Part shown: in pieces, positions 31,973-50,233 of the stretch
How positions within the stretch are numbered: position 1 is the first letter of the stretch
Layout: each line of letters begins with the position of its first letter
Virus record (IMG/VR): IMGVR_UViG_3300037797_000117
Location: 32,001-96,000 of that record
Origin: a virus
Reading direction: 5' to 3' (one strand)
Length of the DNA: 64,000 bases
Translations under genes and position numbers: made by a program
The notes under the pieces: model-generated
The model's input: the letters and a program-made list of their open reading frames with translations, nothing else
What the model was told of the DNA's origin: nothing
The model's database searches: none

Positions 31973-32352
31973 TGCCGGTCAGGGCCGCGAGCTGTTTCGA
32001 GGTGGTCTGCGACAACGCCGACACGGTGCCGTCGTGTGACGGAGGCTGGGACGACGGGCCGATCCACTTCCCCACCGAACAGGACGCCGTCGACTACGCC
32101 CGCACGGCCGGGTTCGTCATCGTCGGAACTACGGTCCTGTGCGCCGAGTGTTCCGCCACCCGTGACTGCGAACGCCTCGGCCACCAGTGGGACACCTGGA
32201 CCGACGGCGAGCACCTCGGTGTCACCTTCAAGAAGCGGCACTGTGACCACTGCGGGATCGGCGACTTCAGCGAAGAATTCCAGCAGGCGGTCCTGCTGGC
32301 CGAGGTCCGGGACATCGTCAACAATGCCGACCAGGCCGGCCACGATGCCTAG
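31969..32352 (+). CDS. Cys-rich hypothetical protein
   Basis: CxxC pairs; coupled gene. Confidence 0.6.
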   Translation: MMPVRAASCFEVVCDNADTVPSCDGGWDDGPIHFPTEQDAVDYARTAGFVIVGTTVLCAECSATRDCERLGHQWDTWTDGEHLGVTFKKRHCDHCGIGDFSEEFQQAVLLAEVRDIVNNADQAGHDA

Positions 32353-41559: not shown

Positions 41560-41607
41560 CCCGGCGGGTTCCGTTGTGCAGTTGGTGAACACCCCGACAT
41601 CACCATA

Positions 41608-41637
41608 TTGTGCCGTACCCCGGTTTCGATGTACTGT
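41608..41637 (+). promoter_or_regulatory. Regulon promoter copy 13
   Basis: TTGTGC-cgtaccccggtttcgatg-TACTGT. Confidence 0.8.
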
Positions 41638-41695
41638 CTGTCTATCGGCAGCGCGCCACACGGCAGCAGCGCCACAGACTTTCCGGGAGATCCCG

Positions 41696-42385
41696 ATGAC
41701 CACCAGCACCGCTACCCAGCAGGACAGCACCGCCGGAAACTTCACCTACTACATCGCCAGGACCATCGTTCTCGGCTTCGCCATCGGCTGTCTCTACTTC
41801 TCCTTCGACCACACCATCCACCTGGCCCACATGCTCGGCGCCACCGGCACCCAGGCCTACACCGCCCCCGCCTTCGTCGACGGCTTCATGTTGCTTGGCC
41901 GCCTCGGCATGAGCGCCAAGTTCGACGCCGCCACCAACAAGATCGGCCGCCGGATGATGGTCGTCGGCGCCCTGATCTCCCTCGCCGCGAACATCGCCGC
42001 CGGCCAGACCCTCGGCGGCCGCATTCTCGGCGCGGCCGTGGTGATCGGCTTCCTCGTGACCGAGTGGTACGCCGGCAAGCTCAAGCCCGCTCCCGCCCCG
42101 GCCCCGACCGTCACCCCCGACGAGCAGGCCGCGATCGACCTGGCCGCCAAGCGTTCCGCCGCCGCCCGCAAGGCCGCCGAAACCCGCAAGGCGAACCAGG
42201 CCGCCAAGCCCACCCGCAAGCCCCGCACCCGCAAGCCCGCCGCCGCCAAGACCCACCCGGTCGCCGCGATCCAGGCCCTGACCCCCCAGCAGATCAACGA
42301 CGCCCCGGTCTCCCCCGCCCCGTGGATGGGCCCGAGCCTGGTCATCGCGAAGACCACCGCTGACATCCGGAACCTGACCAACTAA
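41696..42385 (+). CDS. DUF2637/Spd-like 4-TM plasmid spread protein with Lys/Ala tail
   Basis: SFDH..HLA..LGA...PAFVDG...GALISLAANIAA; basic KAAETRK tail. Confidence 0.7.
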   Translation: MTTSTATQQDSTAGNFTYYIARTIVLGFAIGCLYFSFDHTIHLAHMLGATGTQAYTAPAFVDGFMLLGRLGMSAKFDAATNKIGRRMMVVGALISLAANIAAGQTLGGRILGAAVVIGFLVTEWYAGKLKPAPAPAPTVTPDEQAAIDLAAKRSAAARKAAETRKANQAAKPTRKPRTRKPAAAKTHPVAAIQALTPQQINDAPVSPAPWMGPSLVIAKTTADIRNLTN

Positions 42386-42994: not shown

Positions 42995-43051
42995 ACACAC
43001 AGCGACGCCCCCCCGGGATCCCGGGGGGCCGTCGCTGTGTGTAACGAGGAT

Positions 43052-43179
43052 CGTCCGTACGTACGGACGGACGTACGGTTCCACCAAAAACAAGGGAGGG
43101 GGGTCTTACGCGAGCCCAGGGCCCCCTCTGAGGGGGGCGTACGTCCGTACGTACGTACGTCCGTACGGACAACCGTACG
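43052..43179. repeat. CGTACG/GTCCGTAC repeat cluster (candidate cis-acting transfer locus)
   Basis: Nine CGTACG in about 125 bp; GTCCGTAC x3 forward and x2 reverse. Confidence 0.7.
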
Positions 43180-43237
43180 ATACTCACGGTGACATGTCGG
43201 TGGGCGGGGGCATGCCGTCCGACAACCGTGGGAAGCG

Positions 43238-43644: not shown

Positions 43645-43715
43645 ATGACAAAGGTACCGAAGTTACCCGACATACCGAGTGACCAAAGCTGCCAAAGTTT
43701 CCGACAGTATGTCAT
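43645..43715. promoter_or_regulatory. Tandem 9-bp repeats in the divergent intergenic region
   Basis: CAAAGGTAC-CGAAGTTAC-CCGACA and CAAAGCTGC-CAAAGTTTC-CGACA, bracketed by ATGACA/TGTCAT. Confidence 0.55.
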
Positions 43716-43724
43716 GATGAGCGC

Positions 43725-45368
43725 ATGGAGCGGAACACCGAACACGGAGCGCCGAAGAGTGCCGAATCGGCCCCCGGCGGTACCGCAGTACCCGCGGTAC
43801 CGGTGACCCCCGGTACCGCGGTACCGGTACCGCCCGCGGCCCGGCCGGTACCGGCACACCGCGCCCCGGTACCGACGACCGACACCGGCGGTACCAGTAC
43901 CGACAGCGGTACCGGTACCGCCGGCCGGTACCGCTGGTACCACCGGCTCGGCCGCCGGTACCGCCACACCGGTACCGGTACTGCCACCGCCGGTACCAGC
44001 CTCGCGGTACCGGCCGACGGGGCAGTACAGGTCTTCGGTACCGGTACCGGCGACCTGGTACCGGCCGCCGGGTACCGGTACAACCCGGTCGGTACCGAAG
44101 CAACGATCCGGGCCCACCTGCGCGACCTGCCGGTGCCGGCGGCCGGTACCGCCCGTCGGCACCGCAAGGCGGCGACCGGCACCACCACCGAGCCGGTGAC
44201 CTTCCTCGGCCGGATCTTCAAAGCGATCAGCACCATCTTCGAGATCGCCCCCCTGGCCGCGCCCCTGTTCGCCTCCGGCTGGTTCACCTACCTCGTCGTC
44301 ACCGACGAGTACGGCCTGAGCCAGCCGTGGCCGATCGCGGTGACCATGGTGCTCGGCCTCGAAGGTGTCGTCTGGACCCTCGCCAAGCTGTACGAGCAGC
44401 GGCTGGTCGCCGGCCACTCCACCATCGCCGACCGGCTCGGAATCCTGTTCGTCGTCAGCGCCATCGGCAGCCTCATCTACTGGCACTCCATGGTCGAGGC
44501 CAAGGCCCGCACCGCCGAGGCCAGGGCCGCCGCCGTGCTGGCCGGCATCGACCCGGACTTCGTCGTCGCCGCCAAGGCCGACTGGCGCGGTGCCGCCGTC
44601 GCCGCGTCCATGAGCGCGCTCGGCGTGTTCGTGTACGGGCGTAGGGCCAGGTGGAACCGCCGTGTCGAGCTGGAAGCCGAAGGCCGCGTCGACATGCAGG
44701 CCCTGCGGATCGGTCTCTGGCAGTGGATCGTCTCCCCCTGGGAGTCGACCTGGTCGTTCCGCCACGGCATGAAGTACCGGATCAAGCGCCCCACGGACGC
44801 GGTACGGGACTGGCGGCTGTGGAAGGAGATGGGCAAGCCCAAGCTGTGGCCGCCGGCCATGACCGCCGGTACCACCGGCACCAGCACCGACGAGACGGTA
44901 CCGGTACCGGCGTGGATGCTCGCCGAGCTACTCGGCAACGCCGCCGGTACCGGTACCGGCGGGGACCTGGTCGGTACCGGGTACCCGGTACCGACCTCGC
45001 CCGGCCCGGCCGGTACCGGTACCGGCGGTACGAGCTACGTACCGGTACCGCCGGCGAGCGTTGGCGGTACCGCGACCCGTACCGCCTCCGGCCCGGCCGG
45101 TACCGGAGCGCGCGGTCCCGGCGGTACCGGTACCGGTACCGCCGGGGACTCGGTGACGATCAGCCAGTACCGGCAGCGCAACGCCCACCGTCTCGACAAG
45201 ATCCGTAAGGTGCTCGACGGTACCGACGGCCGGCCGGATTGGCGGCTCGCCCCGGAAGCCGACCTGACCCTGTCCGTCATCACGGCCGCCGGCGGGTTCA
45301 GCAACCGCACCGACGCCGCCCAGTGCAAGTCGGTCCTCCTGGCCGACCGGCAGCGGGAAGGCGGATAA
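43725..45368 (+). CDS. Spd-like 4-TM membrane protein with GGTACC-encoded low-complexity arms and possible C-terminal HTH
   Basis: Central TM helices; GT/VP/RY repeats on both sides; first gene of the transfer operon. Confidence 0.7.
   Translation: MERNTEHGAPKSAESAPGGTAVPAVPVTPGTAVPVPPAARPVPAHRAPVPTTDTGGTSTDSGTGTAGRYRWYHRLGRRYRHTGTGTATAGTSLAVPADGAVQVFGTGTGDLVPAAGYRYNPVGTEATIRAHLRDLPVPAAGTARRHRKAATGTTTEPVTFLGRIFKAISTIFEIAPLAAPLFASGWFTYLVVTDEYGLSQPWPIAVTMVLGLEGVVWTLAKLYEQRLVAGHSTIADRLGILFVVSAIGSLIYWHSMVEAKARTAEARAAAVLAGIDPDFVVAAKADWRGAAVAASMSALGVFVYGRRARWNRRVELEAEGRVDMQALRIGLWQWIVSPWESTWSFRHGMKYRIKRPTDAVRDWRLWKEMGKPKLWPPAMTAGTTGTSTDETVPVPAWMLAELLGNAAGTGTGGDLVGTGYPVPTSPGPAGTGTGGTSYVPVPPASVGGTATRTASGPAGTGARGPGGTGTGTAGDSVTISQYRQRNAHRLDKIRKVLDGTDGRPDWRLAPEADLTLSVITAAGGFSNRTDAAQCKSVLLADRQREGG
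43779..44150. repeat. GGTACC array 1 (about 22 copies)
   Basis: Hand count of the palindromic hexamer. Confidence 0.9.
44868..45224. repeat. GGTACC array 2 (about 17 copies)
   Basis: Hand count of the palindromic hexamer. Confidence 0.9.
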
Positions 45369-45506
45369 AGATCGGCTAGCTGAACGGTTCCACGCCCATA
45401 GACGTGACCCTGAGCATGATCGATGCTTTACCTGGCACCACACGTACCAACTAGCACCAACCTCCCCAAACAGCCCAGATCCCGACAAGAGGAAGACGCG
45501 ACCCCC

Positions 45507-46094
45507 ATGAAAATGCTGACGGCGCAGACCCGGGCCGAATGGCACCGAGGCAACCCCCTCCCCGAACACCCGGTCCGGTCCAAGCCGGCGAGGCCGACGT
45601 TCAGGTTCCTCGACACCCGGGCGTGGCGGCTCCACACCCGCGGCGTGTGGCTCCTCGTCGCCGCGTGCCTGCCCGCCCTGTTCCTGGTGGCGTTCTGGGT
45701 GACCGCCGACGAACTCGGCATGATCGGCTGGGGCATGACCACCGCGGCGGTCCTGATGGTCGCCGTGGCCACCCTGTCCCTGTGGGCCGCCCGCGCCGTC
45801 GAGAACGCCACCCGCAACCGGGCCGACCTGAACGCCGCCGCCGAGGACGCGTTCCTGGCCTTCGACGGTGTCGGACCGGACCTTCCCCCGCCGGCCGCGG
45901 CGGCCGCCGCACCCGTCCCGACCGGTCCGCTGCCGACGCCCGCACCGTGGGTCGGCCCGAACATCGTCTGGCCGACCCGGCAGGAAGACATCCACGAGTC
46001 CGGCCGCGAATACGACGACTACGCGGAGCAGGTCACGGCGGAGGTCGCCGACCCGGCGCCCGCCGCCGGCCCGGCCCGACCCACCCGCCTGTAA
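45507..46094 (+). CDS. 2-TM membrane protein, transfer operon
   Basis: RBS GAGGA; two hydrophobic helices. Confidence 0.65.
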   Translation: MKMLTAQTRAEWHRGNPLPEHPVRSKPARPTFRFLDTRAWRLHTRGVWLLVAACLPALFLVAFWVTADELGMIGWGMTTAAVLMVAVATLSLWAARAVENATRNRADLNAAAEDAFLAFDGVGPDLPPPAAAAAAPVPTGPLPTPAPWVGPNIVWPTRQEDIHESGREYDDYAEQVTAEVADPAPAAGPARPTRL

Positions 46095-46106: not shown

Positions 46107-47597
46107 GTGAATATCGTGAGCACCCCTCAGAACGTTCCGACCCAGCCGGCCGGGCACGGGCCCTACCCGGTGTACCCGGTCGTTCCGGGTGCACCCGTGC
46201 CCGGCACCCCGGGCACGCCCGGAGCCCGGCCCCGCGGGGATGCGGCGTCCCGGATCCAGCGGATGCCGCTCGGGCCGCTGGTGGCCTCGGCTGGCCTGAT
46301 CAGCCTGATCGTCGTCCTGGTCCTGTTCGAGCTGTTCCCGCCGATGATCGCCCTGATGATTCTGTGTGTCCTGATCCTGCTGGCCATCGGGATCTGGTAC
46401 CTGCGTCAGCGCCGCGCCGCCCGCCGCCGCCCCGGCCCCGCCGGTGCGCGCGGCGGGGCTGCCGGGCCGGGTACCCGCCGCGGCGGGAACCCGATCAGCC
46501 GCATGCTCGGCGGCCGCGGTGCCCGCCCCGGTGGTGCCGGCGGCCGCCCGGGCGGTGGCGGGCTGCGCGGGATGTTGCCCCGCGCGCTCGGCGGAACCCG
46601 GGGACGCCCCGGCGGCGGCACCCCCGGCGGTGCGCGGGCTGCGGGTGGCCGCCCCGGCGGCAAACTCAACCCGCTCAACTGGGGTCGCAACCGGGCAGCC
46701 GGTCGCGGCCCTACCACCGGTCCGGGCGGCAGCAAGGCCCCCGGCCGGTTCAACCCGTTCAGCCGGAGCCGCGGCGCGGCCGGCCCGGGTGGTGGACGGC
46801 CCGGGGGCGGCGCTCCCGGCGGTGGGGGACTCGGCAGGTTCAACCCGTTGAACCGGTTCCGTAGCCGGGGAGCTGGCGGCCAGCCGGCGGGGGCCAAGCC
46901 CGGCGGTGGATCATCCAACTCGCCAGGAAGATCCCCCGGTGGTAGCGGCGGCGGCCTGTTCGGGGGCAAACTGAATCCATCCAACTGGAAACGGAACAAC
47001 ACGACCGGGCGCGGCCCGGCCGGCGGGGCCTCCCCCACCGGCGGAGGCCCGGCCGGCGGCGGCGGGGGGCCGGCTCGGGGGTCCGCTGGCGGGGGACCGC
47101 CACCAGGCCCCACCCTGCGCCGCGGTGGTGGCGGCCCCCCAACGCCGCCCCCCGCCCCCCGGCCGGGCGGTTGGTCCCGACCGGGGGGTGGCGCTACCCG
47201 GCGGGCACCGGATCCGCCCGCAAGCGGCGGCGGTGGTTCAGGAAGCGGAGATGGAGGCAGTTCGGACATGGGCATTGAACTTTCCGACGACAAGGTCAGC
47301 CTCATCAAGTGGGCACTCGGGTTGAAGGCCGCCGCCGCCGCGGGCGAGGCCGAGGCCAAAAAGTGGCGTGCTCTTGCCATGCAGGCGGAACAGGAGCAGC
47401 CGACCGAAACGGCGTTGATCGAGCGGCTCCGCGCGCAGGCCACCCGCTACACGGCGGCGTTCGAGCGGATGAGCAAGTGGTACGAAACCATCAAAAAGCA
47501 GAACGAGCCCGACTTCAGGGCCTACTTCACGCCGCGGCACGGGTCGCTGCATCGGGAGGCCCGGTCGGATACCCGGCGGGCGTTCGACGGCAACTAG
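46107..47597 (+). CDS. 2-TM protein with Gly/Arg-rich linker and C-terminal 109-aa helical domain
   Basis: TM hairpin; repeated G(K/R)(L/F)NP motifs; C-terminus paralogous to the next gene. Confidence 0.7.
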   Translation: MNIVSTPQNVPTQPAGHGPYPVYPVVPGAPVPGTPGTPGARPRGDAASRIQRMPLGPLVASAGLISLIVVLVLFELFPPMIALMILCVLILLAIGIWYLRQRRAARRRPGPAGARGGAAGPGTRRGGNPISRMLGGRGARPGGAGGRPGGGGLRGMLPRALGGTRGRPGGGTPGGARAAGGRPGGKLNPLNWGRNRAAGRGPTTGPGGSKAPGRFNPFSRSRGAAGPGGGRPGGGAPGGGGLGRFNPLNRFRSRGAGGQPAGAKPGGGSSNSPGRSPGGSGGGLFGGKLNPSNWKRNNTTGRGPAGGASPTGGGPAGGGGGPARGSAGGGPPPGPTLRRGGGGPPTPPPAPRPGGWSRPGGGATRRAPDPPASGGGGSGSGDGGSSDMGIELSDDKVSLIKWALGLKAAAAAGEAEAKKWRALAMQAEQEQPTETALIERLRAQATRYTAAFERMSKWYETIKKQNEPDFRAYFTPRHGSLHREARSDTRRAFDGN

Positions 47598-47616: not shown

Positions 47617-47946
47617 GTGGGAACACACAGCTACGACGACCAGACCAGCACCTACAAGTGGATCAACGGCCTGAAGGGGCGGGCGGGTGGCGCTAACGTG
47701 CTCGCCCGGGGCGTCCAGATCCTCGCCCACCAGGCGCAGGACCGCCAGCCGGTAACGCCGGCGTTCGCCGCCGAAGTTGCTGCCGTATCGGCCCTCCTGG
47801 GCAAGGCATCACTCGAAGCGGGCGAACTTTTCAAGGCTGCCCGGGCAGCTCACCGCCGTGACGTTGAACGGGTGGAGAACTACCGCAAGAGCCCGGCGGT
47901 AGAGACCAACGCCGACGTCACCGCAGCCAGGCGCGACGGCATGTAG
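47617..47946 (+). CDS. Small helical transfer-associated protein (109 aa)
   Basis: RBS GAAAGG; directly upstream of traB. Confidence 0.7.
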   Translation: MGTHSYDDQTSTYKWINGLKGRAGGANVLARGVQILAHQAQDRQPVTPAFAAEVAAVSALLGKASLEAGELFKAARAAHRRDVERVENYRKSPAVETNADVTAARRDGM

Positions 47947-48016
47947 CTGTCGGTGGCCGGGCCCACCCCCGGCCACCGACCCCCGCACCACCGAGACGTT
48001 GAGGGAGGCGAGACGG

Positions 48017-50233
48017 ATGCCGATGCAGTACAACGCCACCATGTCCGGCGGCACGGCATGGGGGGCGGTCAACGGGTTCCTTACCGCCTTCGCCGTGGCC
48101 CTGCTCGGGTCCAACTGGAATCGCCTCGACCGCAACTGGGGGTGGTGGCACGACCGGTTCGGCCCGTTCCCGATCTGGTTCCCGATGGCTGTCGCCGCCG
48201 CCGCCGCGGTCGCGGCGGTCCTGGTCGGCAACCACCGCGGCACCACCGCTTCCAACATCCGCTTCCGCGCCGGGTGCTGGCTCGGCGCGGGCGTGTGGAC
48301 CACAGTCACCATCCACTACGGCTGGTCCGTGATCGGGTTCGTCATCCTTACCGTCGCCGCGGTTCTTGCGGGAACCCTCGCCCCCGCGTTCGGAACCTTC
48401 ACTCCGCCTCCGCAGCCGTCCATGGACAGCGGAAGCGAGATCACCAGACTCACCCGTTTGATCAACAAGTTTGCCAACATCAAGCCCGAAGACCAGCCGA
48501 CCTTGCAGAAGGTCCGCGACTGGGAACCGAAGGACGCCGGCGTCACCTACAAGGCAGTCGGCGCTCCCGGCACCGACTTCAGTTGGCGCACGCTGCGGGA
48601 GATCCAGATCAGGTTGGCGGCCGGGCTCGGCCTGCCGGAAGGGTGCCCGGTCCAGTCAGAGCCGGCCGGCACCACCCAGAACGAAGCCCTTGTGATGGTT
48701 TCCACCCGGAACTACCTGGCCGAAGACGTCTGGTACCCGATGGACATGACGCCGCTAACCGTCACGGAAGACTTCCCCGTCGGCCGGTTCCTTGACTCGG
48801 CACCGACCGACGTCGAGTTGCGCCAGGCCGCCGGTGTCGTGGTAGGCCAGCGCGGCGGCGGTAAGACCATGCTGCTTCACAACATCACCGCCAGCTTGAT
48901 TCGCATGCCGGACGTCGTGGTGTGGCACATCGACCTCAACGGTGGTGGCCTGTCCGCGCCGTGGACCATGCCGGTAGCGATGGGCGAGGTGCAGTACCCC
49001 GGCGTCGACTGGGTCGCGTCAACGCCCGAAGAGGCGCTGATCATGGCTGAGGTGGCGCTGGCGATCGCGAAGGACCGCAAGCGACGCTACGCCGGCGAGC
49101 TGGTACGCAGCGACGACGACGTGCTCCCCGTCCGACCCGGCCTACCGAAGATCCTCATCATTGTCGACGAGAGTGCCGAGGTCACCGGCGAAGACGCCAA
49201 GAAGAAGGCCCAGGCGGTGTCGGCGGCGTTGCAGGAGGTGCAGCGGATCGGCCGCGCCATGTGCGTCGACGTCTTCTTCTCCGTCCTGCGTGGCACCGGC
49301 GATCTGCTGCCGGCCGGAATCAAGAAGCAGGCCGTCCTGTCGTTCTGCACCCGGGTGCGCGACGAGTCGGAACTGGCGTTCGTGTTCGACTGGAAGTCGG
49401 GCCTGGACCACGAGGCGCTCAAGGAGCCCGGCCAGATGTACATGCAGCGCGGCTCCGGCGCGGTCAAGATGTTCAAGGGGTTCCGATTGAAGCCCAGCAT
49501 GATGATCGCCATCGTGCATGCCATGCAGCATGTCCGGGCCCAGGCCCAACTCGACGGCCCCGCGTTGCGGGTCGCCGGTGACGCCTACCTCCAGCGGTGG
49601 CAGCGACCCGACGCAGTTGCCTACCTGGCGGGGCTCCGCGGCGAAGACGGCCCCGACCCCGGCGACGGTGGGGGCGGCGGCTACGGCGGCCCACCCGACC
49701 CGGACCCGGACCCGTATTCGTCCGGTGGCGACCCCGGGGACGACGCGCTCGCCGAGTTCGACGCCGCCATCCGCGAGATCGAGGCGGGGGAGAAGCCGGA
49801 ATCGACCCGGCCGGCGGCACCGGTGCGGGAGGCAGCACCGGCAGCACCGGCCGGGTCGATTCCCGACGACGTGGTCCAGCGGATGCTGAACCAGATCGAG
49901 GCGCTCCCCACGACGGAGGCGCCGCTGGTAGACCCGGCCCCGGCGGCGACGACGCTGGCCGGCCCGGGCCTGCCGGGCGGCCCGGATCAGGCGTCGACCC
50001 GTGGCCCCGTCCCCCGGCGGGCGTTCATCGAGCAGCTACTCGAGCGGGCCGGTCGGGACGGGATGCGGACGGGGGACATTGTGCGGCTTGTGATGGCGTC
50101 GGGGCTGAAGGTTCGGCGCGAGGCCACGATCAAGGAGGACCTACAGGCTCTCCTTGACGCGGGGGTCATCACGCGGAACAACCCGGACGGCGGCGAGACG
50201 CACGGCATGTACTGGCTGAGCCGGCTGGTCTGA
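48017..50233 (+). CDS. traB: TraB-like FtsK/SpoIIIE conjugative DNA translocase
   Basis: N-terminal TM helices; Walker A GQRGGGKT; VWHIDLNGG; Walker B ILIIVDESAE; R.GRA motif; C-terminal wHTH. Confidence 0.85.
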   Translation: MPMQYNATMSGGTAWGAVNGFLTAFAVALLGSNWNRLDRNWGWWHDRFGPFPIWFPMAVAAAAAVAAVLVGNHRGTTASNIRFRAGCWLGAGVWTTVTIHYGWSVIGFVILTVAAVLAGTLAPAFGTFTPPPQPSMDSGSEITRLTRLINKFANIKPEDQPTLQKVRDWEPKDAGVTYKAVGAPGTDFSWRTLREIQIRLAAGLGLPEGCPVQSEPAGTTQNEALVMVSTRNYLAEDVWYPMDMTPLTVTEDFPVGRFLDSAPTDVELRQAAGVVVGQRGGGKTMLLHNITASLIRMPDVVVWHIDLNGGGLSAPWTMPVAMGEVQYPGVDWVASTPEEALIMAEVALAIAKDRKRRYAGELVRSDDDVLPVRPGLPKILIIVDESAEVTGEDAKKKAQAVSAALQEVQRIGRAMCVDVFFSVLRGTGDLLPAGIKKQAVLSFCTRVRDESELAFVFDWKSGLDHEALKEPGQMYMQRGSGAVKMFKGFRLKPSMMIAIVHAMQHVRAQAQLDGPALRVAGDAYLQRWQRPDAVAYLAGLRGEDGPDPGDGGGGGYGGPPDPDPDPYSSGGDPGDDALAEFDAAIREIEAGEKPESTRPAAPVREAAPAAPAGSIPDDVVQRMLNQIEALPTTEAPLVDPAPAATTLAGPGLPGGPDQASTRGPVPRRAFIEQLLERAGRDGMRTGDIVRLVMASGLKVRREATIKEDLQALLDAGVITRNNPDGGETHGMYWLSRLV

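Follow-up and report, generated by a model that had tools for sequence, protein, structure and literature searches.

The 64,000-nucleotide stretch of virus DNA analysed here (the window; positions 32,001 to 96,000 of IMG/VR virus record IMGVR_UViG_3300037797_000117) contains a membrane-protein gene, coding for a protein that we call P0001, in which two dense arrays of the hexamer GGTACC are embedded. These arrays are under selection at the DNA level. We read them, with about as much confidence as doubt, as arrays of short element-specific double-stranded DNA (dsDNA) sites, putatively recognised by the C-terminal domain of P0001 itself, an SpdB2-like protein of a TraB-type module. The genome to which the window belongs is a single contig of 166,387 bp (69% GC) in which almost every gene lies on the same strand. 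Its products include minor tail proteins, a tape-measure protein, DnaB and an FtsK/SpoIIIE/TraB-like protein. Tail genes, and a TraB-like protein whose nearest database relatives are translocases of Streptomyces and Thermobifida phages, identify the element as a large siphovirus-like actinophage with a TraB-type module. The array gene and its parts are the following.

43725-45368, + strand: membrane-protein gene, 547 amino acids (P0001), described from its open reading frame, translation, AlphaFold model and hydropathy
43779-44150, no strand assigned: N-arm array, 22 GGTACC with the core CGGTACCG, overprinted on residues 19-142
44178-44864, + strand: conserved membrane core, residues 152-380, zero GGTACC
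44868-45224, no strand assigned: C-arm array, 17 GGTACC, 16 of them on residues 382-472
45147-45365, + strand: folded C-terminal domain, residues 475-547, helix-turn-helix (HTH)-like, the proposed reader of the arrays

The window has 74 copies of GGTACC, compared with 17.0±4.0 (maximum 27) after dinucleotide-preserving shuffles, and 39 of the 74 lie on this one + strand gene, between 43779 and 45224. The earlier note on this DNA had described about 39 sites in two blocks of 22 and 17 with none between them, and the exact counts agree. The 717 bp that separate the arrays (44151-44867) contain no GGTACC, and the last C-arm site (45219) falls within the region coding for the C-terminal domain. 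The use of three reading frames and the irregular spacing, noticed at the same time, were likewise confirmed: 23 sites are read as Gly-Thr (GGT-ACC), 11 as Val-Pro (G-GTA-CC, as GTA-CCG) and five as Arg/Trp/Gly-Tyr (xGG-TAC-C), at distances of 6-54 bp. A flank preference extends the hexamer to CGGTACCG, with C at -1 in 35 and G at +1 in 34 of the 39 sites. When enrichment was computed along all 166,387 bp, the array gene was the sole cluster among 138 GGTACC sites, the hexamer being 2.4-fold over composition genome-wide.

Codon choice in the array gene is extreme, and for this reason the DNA has to be taken as the selected object. Of the 27 Gly-Thr pairs in the gene, 23 are spelled GGTACC, compared with 24 of 252 in the remaining genome. 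Val-Pro is spelled GTACCG in 12 of 14 cases, and GTA, which makes up 6% of the Val codons genome-wide, is used at 13 of these 14. Recoding the gene synonymously 5000 times with the codon usage of the genome gave 5.3±2.0 GGTACC (maximum 13), and shuffling its own synonymous codons gave 14.4±2.5 (maximum 25), against the 39 observed.

The AlphaFold model of P0001, built with 51 homologues, shows a disordered N arm, a helical membrane core, a disordered C arm and a folded C-terminal domain. The predicted local distance difference test score (pLDDT) is below 50 in the arms (residues 1-121 and 382-474), about 90 in the core (residues 160-370) and 93-97 in the C-terminal domain (residues 475-546). 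The core helices, modelled with pLDDT of about 90, are residues 160-193, 202-229, 234-272 and 288-311. Hydropathy gives three strong transmembrane segments and a weaker one, in agreement with the modelled core, and basic residues border these segments on the arm side. Because the positions of the arrays coincide with the arms of low pLDDT, the arrays sit essentially only on disorder-coding regions. In the model, they are confined to arms predicted to be disordered, in which the protein sequence would be almost free to vary. Searches of Pfam and PHROG returned no match for P0001. DUF2637 (PF10935) is matched by three of 51 family members (best E = 6.5e-6), and P0041, a distant member, matches plasmid genes annotated as DUF2637; comparison of the core profile with the DUF2637-like protein of the same phage by hhalign gave no relationship. 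P0001 is called SpdB2-like here for its architecture and context, and any homology would be remote.

A word-indexed search found five close homologues and an exhaustive core-profile search 60 proteins, and the DNA of the window was compared with that of twelve homologous loci at 25-78% identity. A search for related loci with alignment A1 added nothing new in viral, genome or metagenome contigs, the phage and plasmid collections gave no tblastn match to P0001 or its core, and Pfam searches of neighbouring genes in L002, L008-L010 and L012 brought no further context. All 39 of the strong homologues have the same plan, a core flanked by two variable arms, with the C-terminal domain last. P0055, a distant member from the profile search, has a permuted order (HTH-like domain, Pro/Val-rich repeat arm, membrane core), so that the link between arm and small domain is kept although the order has changed. 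The arms of the homologues are rich in di- and tripeptides that differ from protein to protein, each set resembling one DNA word read in several frames. The window and four other loci (L001, L002, L003 and L005) share the word CGGTACC; the words of the other loci are CGGAACC, CG(G/A)GAACG, GAGACG, ACGGGACA (the L009 type), ACGGAACG, CCGAACC, CGACCG and GGGAC. The sites are distributed as follows.

L001: cCGGTACCg, 40 in the gene, 2 in the other 11 kb
L002: cCGGTACCg, 24 in the gene, 3 in the other 5.9 kb
L003: cCGGTACCg, 23 in the gene, 0 elsewhere in the locus
L005: cCGGTACCg, 21 in the gene, 1 elsewhere in the locus
L004: cGGAACCgg, 19 in the gene (GGTACC 0), 1 elsewhere in the locus
L007: cG[GA]GAACg, 41 in the gene, 3 elsewhere in the locus
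L008: GAGACG, 47 in the gene, 13 more in 200 bp of upstream non-coding DNA
L009: cACGGGACac (CGGGAC counted), 45 in the gene, 7 in the other 12.8 kb
L010: cCGACCg, about 49 in the gene, with a high background
L011: caCGGAACg, 56 in the gene, 5 in the other 8.9 kb
L012: CCGAACC (CGAACC counted), 19 in the gene, 7 in upstream non-coding DNA and 9 inverted in the next gene
L014: GGGAC, 22 forward and 21 reverse in the gene, 4 elsewhere in the locus

Sites are found in both arms of every locus and hardly at all in the core, and in L008 and L012 the arrays run on into upstream non-coding DNA. The words are mostly non-palindromic and are used in several frames and both orientations. Four of the non-palindromic words are biased towards the direction of the gene (L009 38:7, L011 44:12, L012 16:3, L010 37:8), and reverse-orientation sites are common in L007, L008 and L014. 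The window and L001, with cores about 79% identical, have 24 site columns in common and about 15 private sites per genome; in the N arm the site columns are 82% identical, compared with 56% for the spacers. That site columns outlast spacers indicates purifying selection on the word, with turnover of single sites. The word itself can change, as shown by the one-base switch from CGGTACC to CGGAACC between relatives with conserved cores about 60% identical. The words resemble one another, as CGG-N-AC and close variants, and are self-complementary solely when N is T; this likeness suggests homologous readers with drifting specificity. By comparison of the loci, the site unit appears to be about CGG-N-AC, here CGGTAC(CG), in which the word is lineage-specific and the palindrome incidental. 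Palindromy, which the earlier note had emphasised, is a special case. The arrangement holds across the family and is not peculiar to this phage.

The lineage-specific words, the two orientations, the spill into non-coding DNA and the conservation of sites together exclude protein-level selection, simple slippage and a restriction-site role. The proposal that the DNA and not the peptide is selected therefore holds. Homologues that keep the peptide with random synonymous codons were looked for, and what they carry instead is a DNA word, different in each lineage. The alternative without any DNA function is that Gly/Thr/Pro/Val low-complexity repeats arose by slippage or unequal recombination and later drifted in frame. 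Of the 382 site spacings pooled across loci, 187 are multiples of 3 and tandem 6-bp steps are frequent, as this origin would have it, and disordered arms tolerate nearly any sequence; no 10-11 bp phasing was found in the pooled spacings. However, the spacers are heterogeneous and diverge faster than the sites, the sites occupy three frames, both orientations and non-coding DNA with extreme codon choice in the array gene, and whole arrays have changed word between relatives while keeping their position, and we regard such an origin as very improbable. Still harder to credit, and rejected here, is that the arrays serve as decoy or sensor, a role raised in the earlier note, or as a sink for restriction or methylation at GGTACC (KpnI-type) or GTAC. 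GGTACC is a type II palindrome, and other palindromic hexamers are strongly avoided genome-wide (CTGCAG 3 vs 57 expected, CCTAGG 2, CTCGAG 7). GGTACC itself is not avoided, with 99 copies outside the array gene against about 56 expected from composition, the relatives bear non-palindromic words at the same positions, and two-armed arrays in one particular gene are unlike what a decoy needs.

The hexamer usage of the genome is an observation in its own right. AAGCTT is absent, CCTAGG occurs twice against 57 expected, CTGCAG 3, CTCGAG and GCTAGC 7 times each and CAGCTG 11 times, and GTCGAC, TGATCA, ACCGGT and GGTACC are over-represented; this bias looks like selection by host restriction systems. 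Three further roles for the arrays were considered and set aside. A role at the RNA level, raised by the sense-strand bias, does not fit L014, L008 and L007, which use both orientations heavily, nor the sites in upstream non-coding DNA. A Chi-like sequence or mimic of host KOPS does not fit a word that differs among close relatives. An iteron-type replication origin is not supported because there is no AT-rich element (lowest GC 0.605 in 200-bp windows over 42.5-46.5 kb), the product is a membrane protein and not Rep, and the arrays accompany the transfer module in all loci.

The remaining alternatives concern other proteins. The genes and intergenic region of the module are listed here.

41576-42385, + strand: DUF2637-like (Spd-type) membrane-protein gene, PF10935 at E = 0.0017, below the gathering score
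43238-43651, - strand: small divergent HTH_17-like (excisionase/MerR-like) gene, PF12728 found on its counterparts in L002, L011 and L014 (alignment A6)
43652-43724, no strand assigned: promoter/intergenic region with one GGTACC (43653) and CCAAAG direct repeats
45423-46094 (223 amino acids) and 46107-47597 (496 amino acids), + strand: two genes of no Pfam or PHROG match, from the array gene to traB
47903-50233, + strand: TraB/FtsK/SpoIIIE-like dsDNA translocase gene (phrog_31069, E = 2e-72); coordinates run from stop to stop, with the true start further inside

The TraB-like gene lies 2.5 kb downstream of the array gene; arrays and traB belong to one operon-like module, with the arrays 2.5-4.5 kb upstream of traB. 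A TraB-like gene is found downstream in every locus long enough to reveal one. The best tblastn matches of the window TraB are FtsK-like translocases of Streptomyces phages Hiyaa, Galactica, Spocter and Keanu and of Thermobifida phage P1312, with a more distant match to plasmid-phage ZL12; its C-terminal sequence is winged-helix-like (alignment A3). In Streptomyces phage Hiyaa we found the FtsK-like gene with an upstream membrane protein, but no large array. The arrays could be TraB recognition sequences in unusually large number, read by the winged helix of TraB, which would load there and pump the genome through the membrane. In Streptomyces plasmids the cognate TraB binds clt loci made of direct repeats, 7-9 bp long and specific to the element (PMC4447253; PMC3583192). 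The array words resemble these repeats in being 6-8 bp long, element-specific and, where non-palindromic, biased in orientation (as in L009, L011 and L012), with traB present downstream as described. The comparison between loci speaks otherwise. The window and L002 share CGGTACC, yet their TraBs are 31% identical in the motor only, with winged helices that do not align; the TraBs of L002 and L009, 35% identical over the full length, are similar in the winged helix too, but the two loci have different words; and the window and L012 have similar TraB helix 3 sequences, again with different words. Known clt loci, moreover, lie at or beside traB with 4-9 repeats, whereas here 20-56 sites lie within another gene, and the traB linker of the window has a small cluster of its own, of GACCCGG. 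The array protein of L002 is 54% identical to that of the window in the matched region, vs 32% to that of L009, and the L002 array gene groups with the window's, while L002 traB and the 560-residue gene that precedes it group with those of L009. The module is mosaic, with incongruent phylogenies for the two genes, and the word is not tracked by the winged helix of TraB. The array gene, for the tether, and traB, for the motor, have been exchanged independently, and this shuffling suggests that tether and motor are separable parts. The loading zone for TraB put forward in the earlier note is accordingly disfavoured, and we consider recognition by TraB unlikely.

The GACCCGG sites are densest in the genome at 49697-49931 (5 in 235 bp; next best 3), in the Asp/Pro-rich disordered linker that precedes the winged helix of TraB, and the equivalent linker of L002 traB (L002:5822-5904) carries CGACCCGG four times in 80 bp. 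GACCCGG resembles the TraB recognition sequence of pSVH1, which we take to be GACCCGGA. The cluster may be a small clt that TraB has in its own linker, or merely reflect Asp-Pro codons. A further small repeat lies upstream, where the DUF2637-like gene encodes a C-terminal tail rich in Lys, Arg and Pro. CCCGCAAG occurs four times there in 64 bp (42165-42228; 16 copies genome-wide), which may be a small site cluster or just a basic peptide repeat.

Another trans-acting factor, such as the divergent HTH_17 Xis/BldC-like protein, a small module protein or a host FtsK-type motor, might bind the arrays, which in that case may be a regulator sink, a silencing filament or a partition centromere. HTH_17-fold proteins bind direct repeats as head-to-tail multimers, and a small HTH_17-like gene is conserved divergently upstream in most related loci. 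SpdA2 and its sps sites are known to affect the segregational stability of pIJ101 (PMC4170104). Against such a factor, arrays are still present in L007 and L010, where the divergent regulator is of the GntR type, and in L008, which lacks one; the HTH_17 proteins differ in their putative recognition helix even inside the GGTACC clade; and a conserved host factor would not account for as many as eight words among thirteen loci. The promoter elements are also common to lineages with different array words. CCAAAG-N4-5-CCAAAG followed by acagtatgtcat is found upstream of the array gene in the window, L001 and L002, and GGCACACT in L003, L005, L012 and L014, so that the operator of the regulator differs from the array word. 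Judged by its sequence and position, the divergent HTH_17-like protein is probably an operon regulator with an operator of its own, and the CCAAAG/acagtatgtcat/GGCACACT elements are probably this operator. Altogether we find binding of the arrays by another factor quite unlikely.

Two other groups of GTAC-containing sequences were observed around this region. Dense CGTACG / GTCCGTAC repeats lie at 43042-43180, with a terminator-like hairpin (43005-43030) on one side and the 3' end of the HTH_17 gene on the other. They include ACGTACG nine times in about 100 bp and form two patches on either side of an A-tract and a G/C hairpin; they have the GTAC core in common with the GGTACC arrays, with different flanks. 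The palindrome CGTACCC-N-GGGTACG has 12 window sites at up to 2 mismatches (17305, 18311, 20094, 21476, 34187, 35869, 37682, 38306, 41614, 50679, 55934 and 61151), and 24 sites against 9±3 expected when 3 mismatches are counted. The arrays match this phage-wide operator only at 3 mismatches and no copy precedes the array gene, and we regard the operator as a separate system.

With the other candidates eliminated, and since sites commonly adjoin the gene of their binder, as illustrated in the same plasmid world by SpdA2 of pIJ101, which binds palindromes within its own coding region (PMC4170104), the C-terminal domain of P0001 is favoured as the putative reader. Among the three roles proposed earlier, an array for this domain is the one that the comparative data favour. 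We give about an even chance to the reading that the HTH-like domain recognises the arrays and thereby tethers the DNA of the element to a membrane complex for transfer or spread. The domain is found in 39 of 39 strong homologues, is homologous across 30 family members and keeps a pLDDT of 84 when modelled alone. Its HTH-like end keeps F-x-N-[RK]-T in the GGTACC clade and has C-K-R-S in the GGAACC relative, of which N-[RK]-T and K-R-S belong to the last helix. VIA-align gave weak matches (Z 4-5) to the winged helices of ScpB, IclR and FtsK gamma, and C-terminal domains of sister clades matched HTH_23, Sigma70_r4_2 and HTH_24 at E = 7e-4 to 0.05, below Pfam cut-offs. In a partial Mantel test of arm dipeptides against identity of the putative recognition helix, with core identity controlled, r was 0.29 (p = 0.0005).

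Several points weigh against this assignment. Neither by sequence nor with Foldseek does the C-terminal domain significantly match any DNA-binding fold: Foldseek against the PDB returned zero matches, a PDB sequence profile search gave chance-level matches only, and a search of the ESM Atlas gave nothing exceeding chance. The Mantel correlation is equally significant for helix 1, so that the recognition helix is not singled out, and concordance between domain and word is already expected from physical linkage. Sites are often merely 6-7 bp apart, and a domain of 70 residues therefore could not occupy all of them simultaneously. The membership of P0001 in DUF2637/SpdB2, as judged from sequence comparisons, is remote. 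The earlier note had asked whether each homologue has a different palindromic array co-varying with the C-terminal domain: each lineage has a different word, the words are mostly non-palindromic, and the Mantel test points to no particular helix as the reader.

If the C-terminal domain is the reader, P0001 would insert in the membrane with both arms and the C-terminal domain in the cytoplasm, and the C-terminal domains of an oligomer would bind the approximately 40 sites that lie in their own gene or around it. In this way a membrane complex that contains the TraB motor would hold the phage or plasmid genome, which could be passed through septa, in intramycelial spread or transfer, or be kept with its compartment, as in segregation of a plasmid-like prophage. 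The arms would be used doubly, as flexible protein tethers and as site-bearing DNA. More tentatively, and as a possibility that we rate below recognition by the domain as such, the gene may be a self-addressing genome tether in which linker-coding DNA is a multi-site docking array for the DNA-binding domain of the same protein. SpdB2 of pSVH1 is a pore-forming protein that binds dsDNA and interacts with TraB, and its homologues on actinophages have been suggested to aid the spreading of phage DNA (PMC4447253).

We class the arrays with the cis-acting repeat loci of TraB-type elements, with an unusual dual-coding architecture. The literature describes clt repeats at traB and sps palindromes in spdA (PMC4447253, PMC3583192, PMC4170104). 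Like the arrays, the clt loci or TraB recognition sequences of pSVH1, pJV1 and pWTY27 are element-specific repeats of 7-9 bp, mostly direct, in a transfer region with an FtsK-like TraB, and in pWTY27 they too overlap coding sequence, with 16 bp of clt inside traA (PMC3583192). They number 4-9 repeats against 20-56 sites in the arrays, which in addition are split around the membrane-core coding region of a different, SpdB2-like gene, run in three frames over disorder-coding regions and are found in a tailed phage in which the TraB winged helix does not track the word. SpdA2 and sps are alike in that a DNA-binding protein of the spread gene set has specific sites inside its own coding region, and in pIJ101 these could be removed synonymously, with a phenotype in segregational stability (PMC4170104). 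The sps site is one conserved 12-bp palindrome, CGTCACGTGACG, in 1-3 copies and common to many plasmids (PMC4170104), whereas the arrays consist of tens of copies of a lineage-specific 6-8 bp word in the gene of an integral membrane protein. No match to CGTCACGTGACG at up to 2 mismatches was found in or near the array gene, and the window has 5 against 11 expected. SpdB2 of pSVH1 and DUF2637 proteins are similar to P0001 as multi-pass membrane proteins in an operon with traB, but P0001 falls below every Pfam threshold; SpdB2 binding is reported to be non-specific, and site arrays in spdB2 were not found described in the literature searched.

Dispersed short sites also recruit a membrane-linking protein or orient a translocase in the Noc-NBS and RacA-ram systems of Bacillus subtilis and in FtsK-KOPS. 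Those sites are chromosome-wide and outside the gene of their reader, while the arrays here lie within 1.5 kb and inside the gene of the presumed reader. In the literature searched, which did not reach the EMBO J 2011 work on TraB, we found no SpdB2-like gene whose linker-coding arms carry tens of lineage-specific sites; 8-bp repeats within spd genes may be tabulated in such key TraB literature.

If the tether is true, protein and target would be inherited as a single portable cassette that can be combined with different TraB motors, and new private specificities would arise through concerted turnover of the 6-8 bp word. Actinophage DNA would be captured at septa and pumped between compartments without virions, which would bear on the role of TraB/Spd modules in phages, and the poorly understood spread step of Streptomyces-type dsDNA transfer would gain a concrete cis element. 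The arrays would also provide a clear example of dual coding in nature, with disordered protein regions shaped by selection for DNA sites, and would warn against reading low-complexity peptide repeats as protein features. The lineage words, each with its small reader domain, would then form a natural series of matched protein-DNA specificities.

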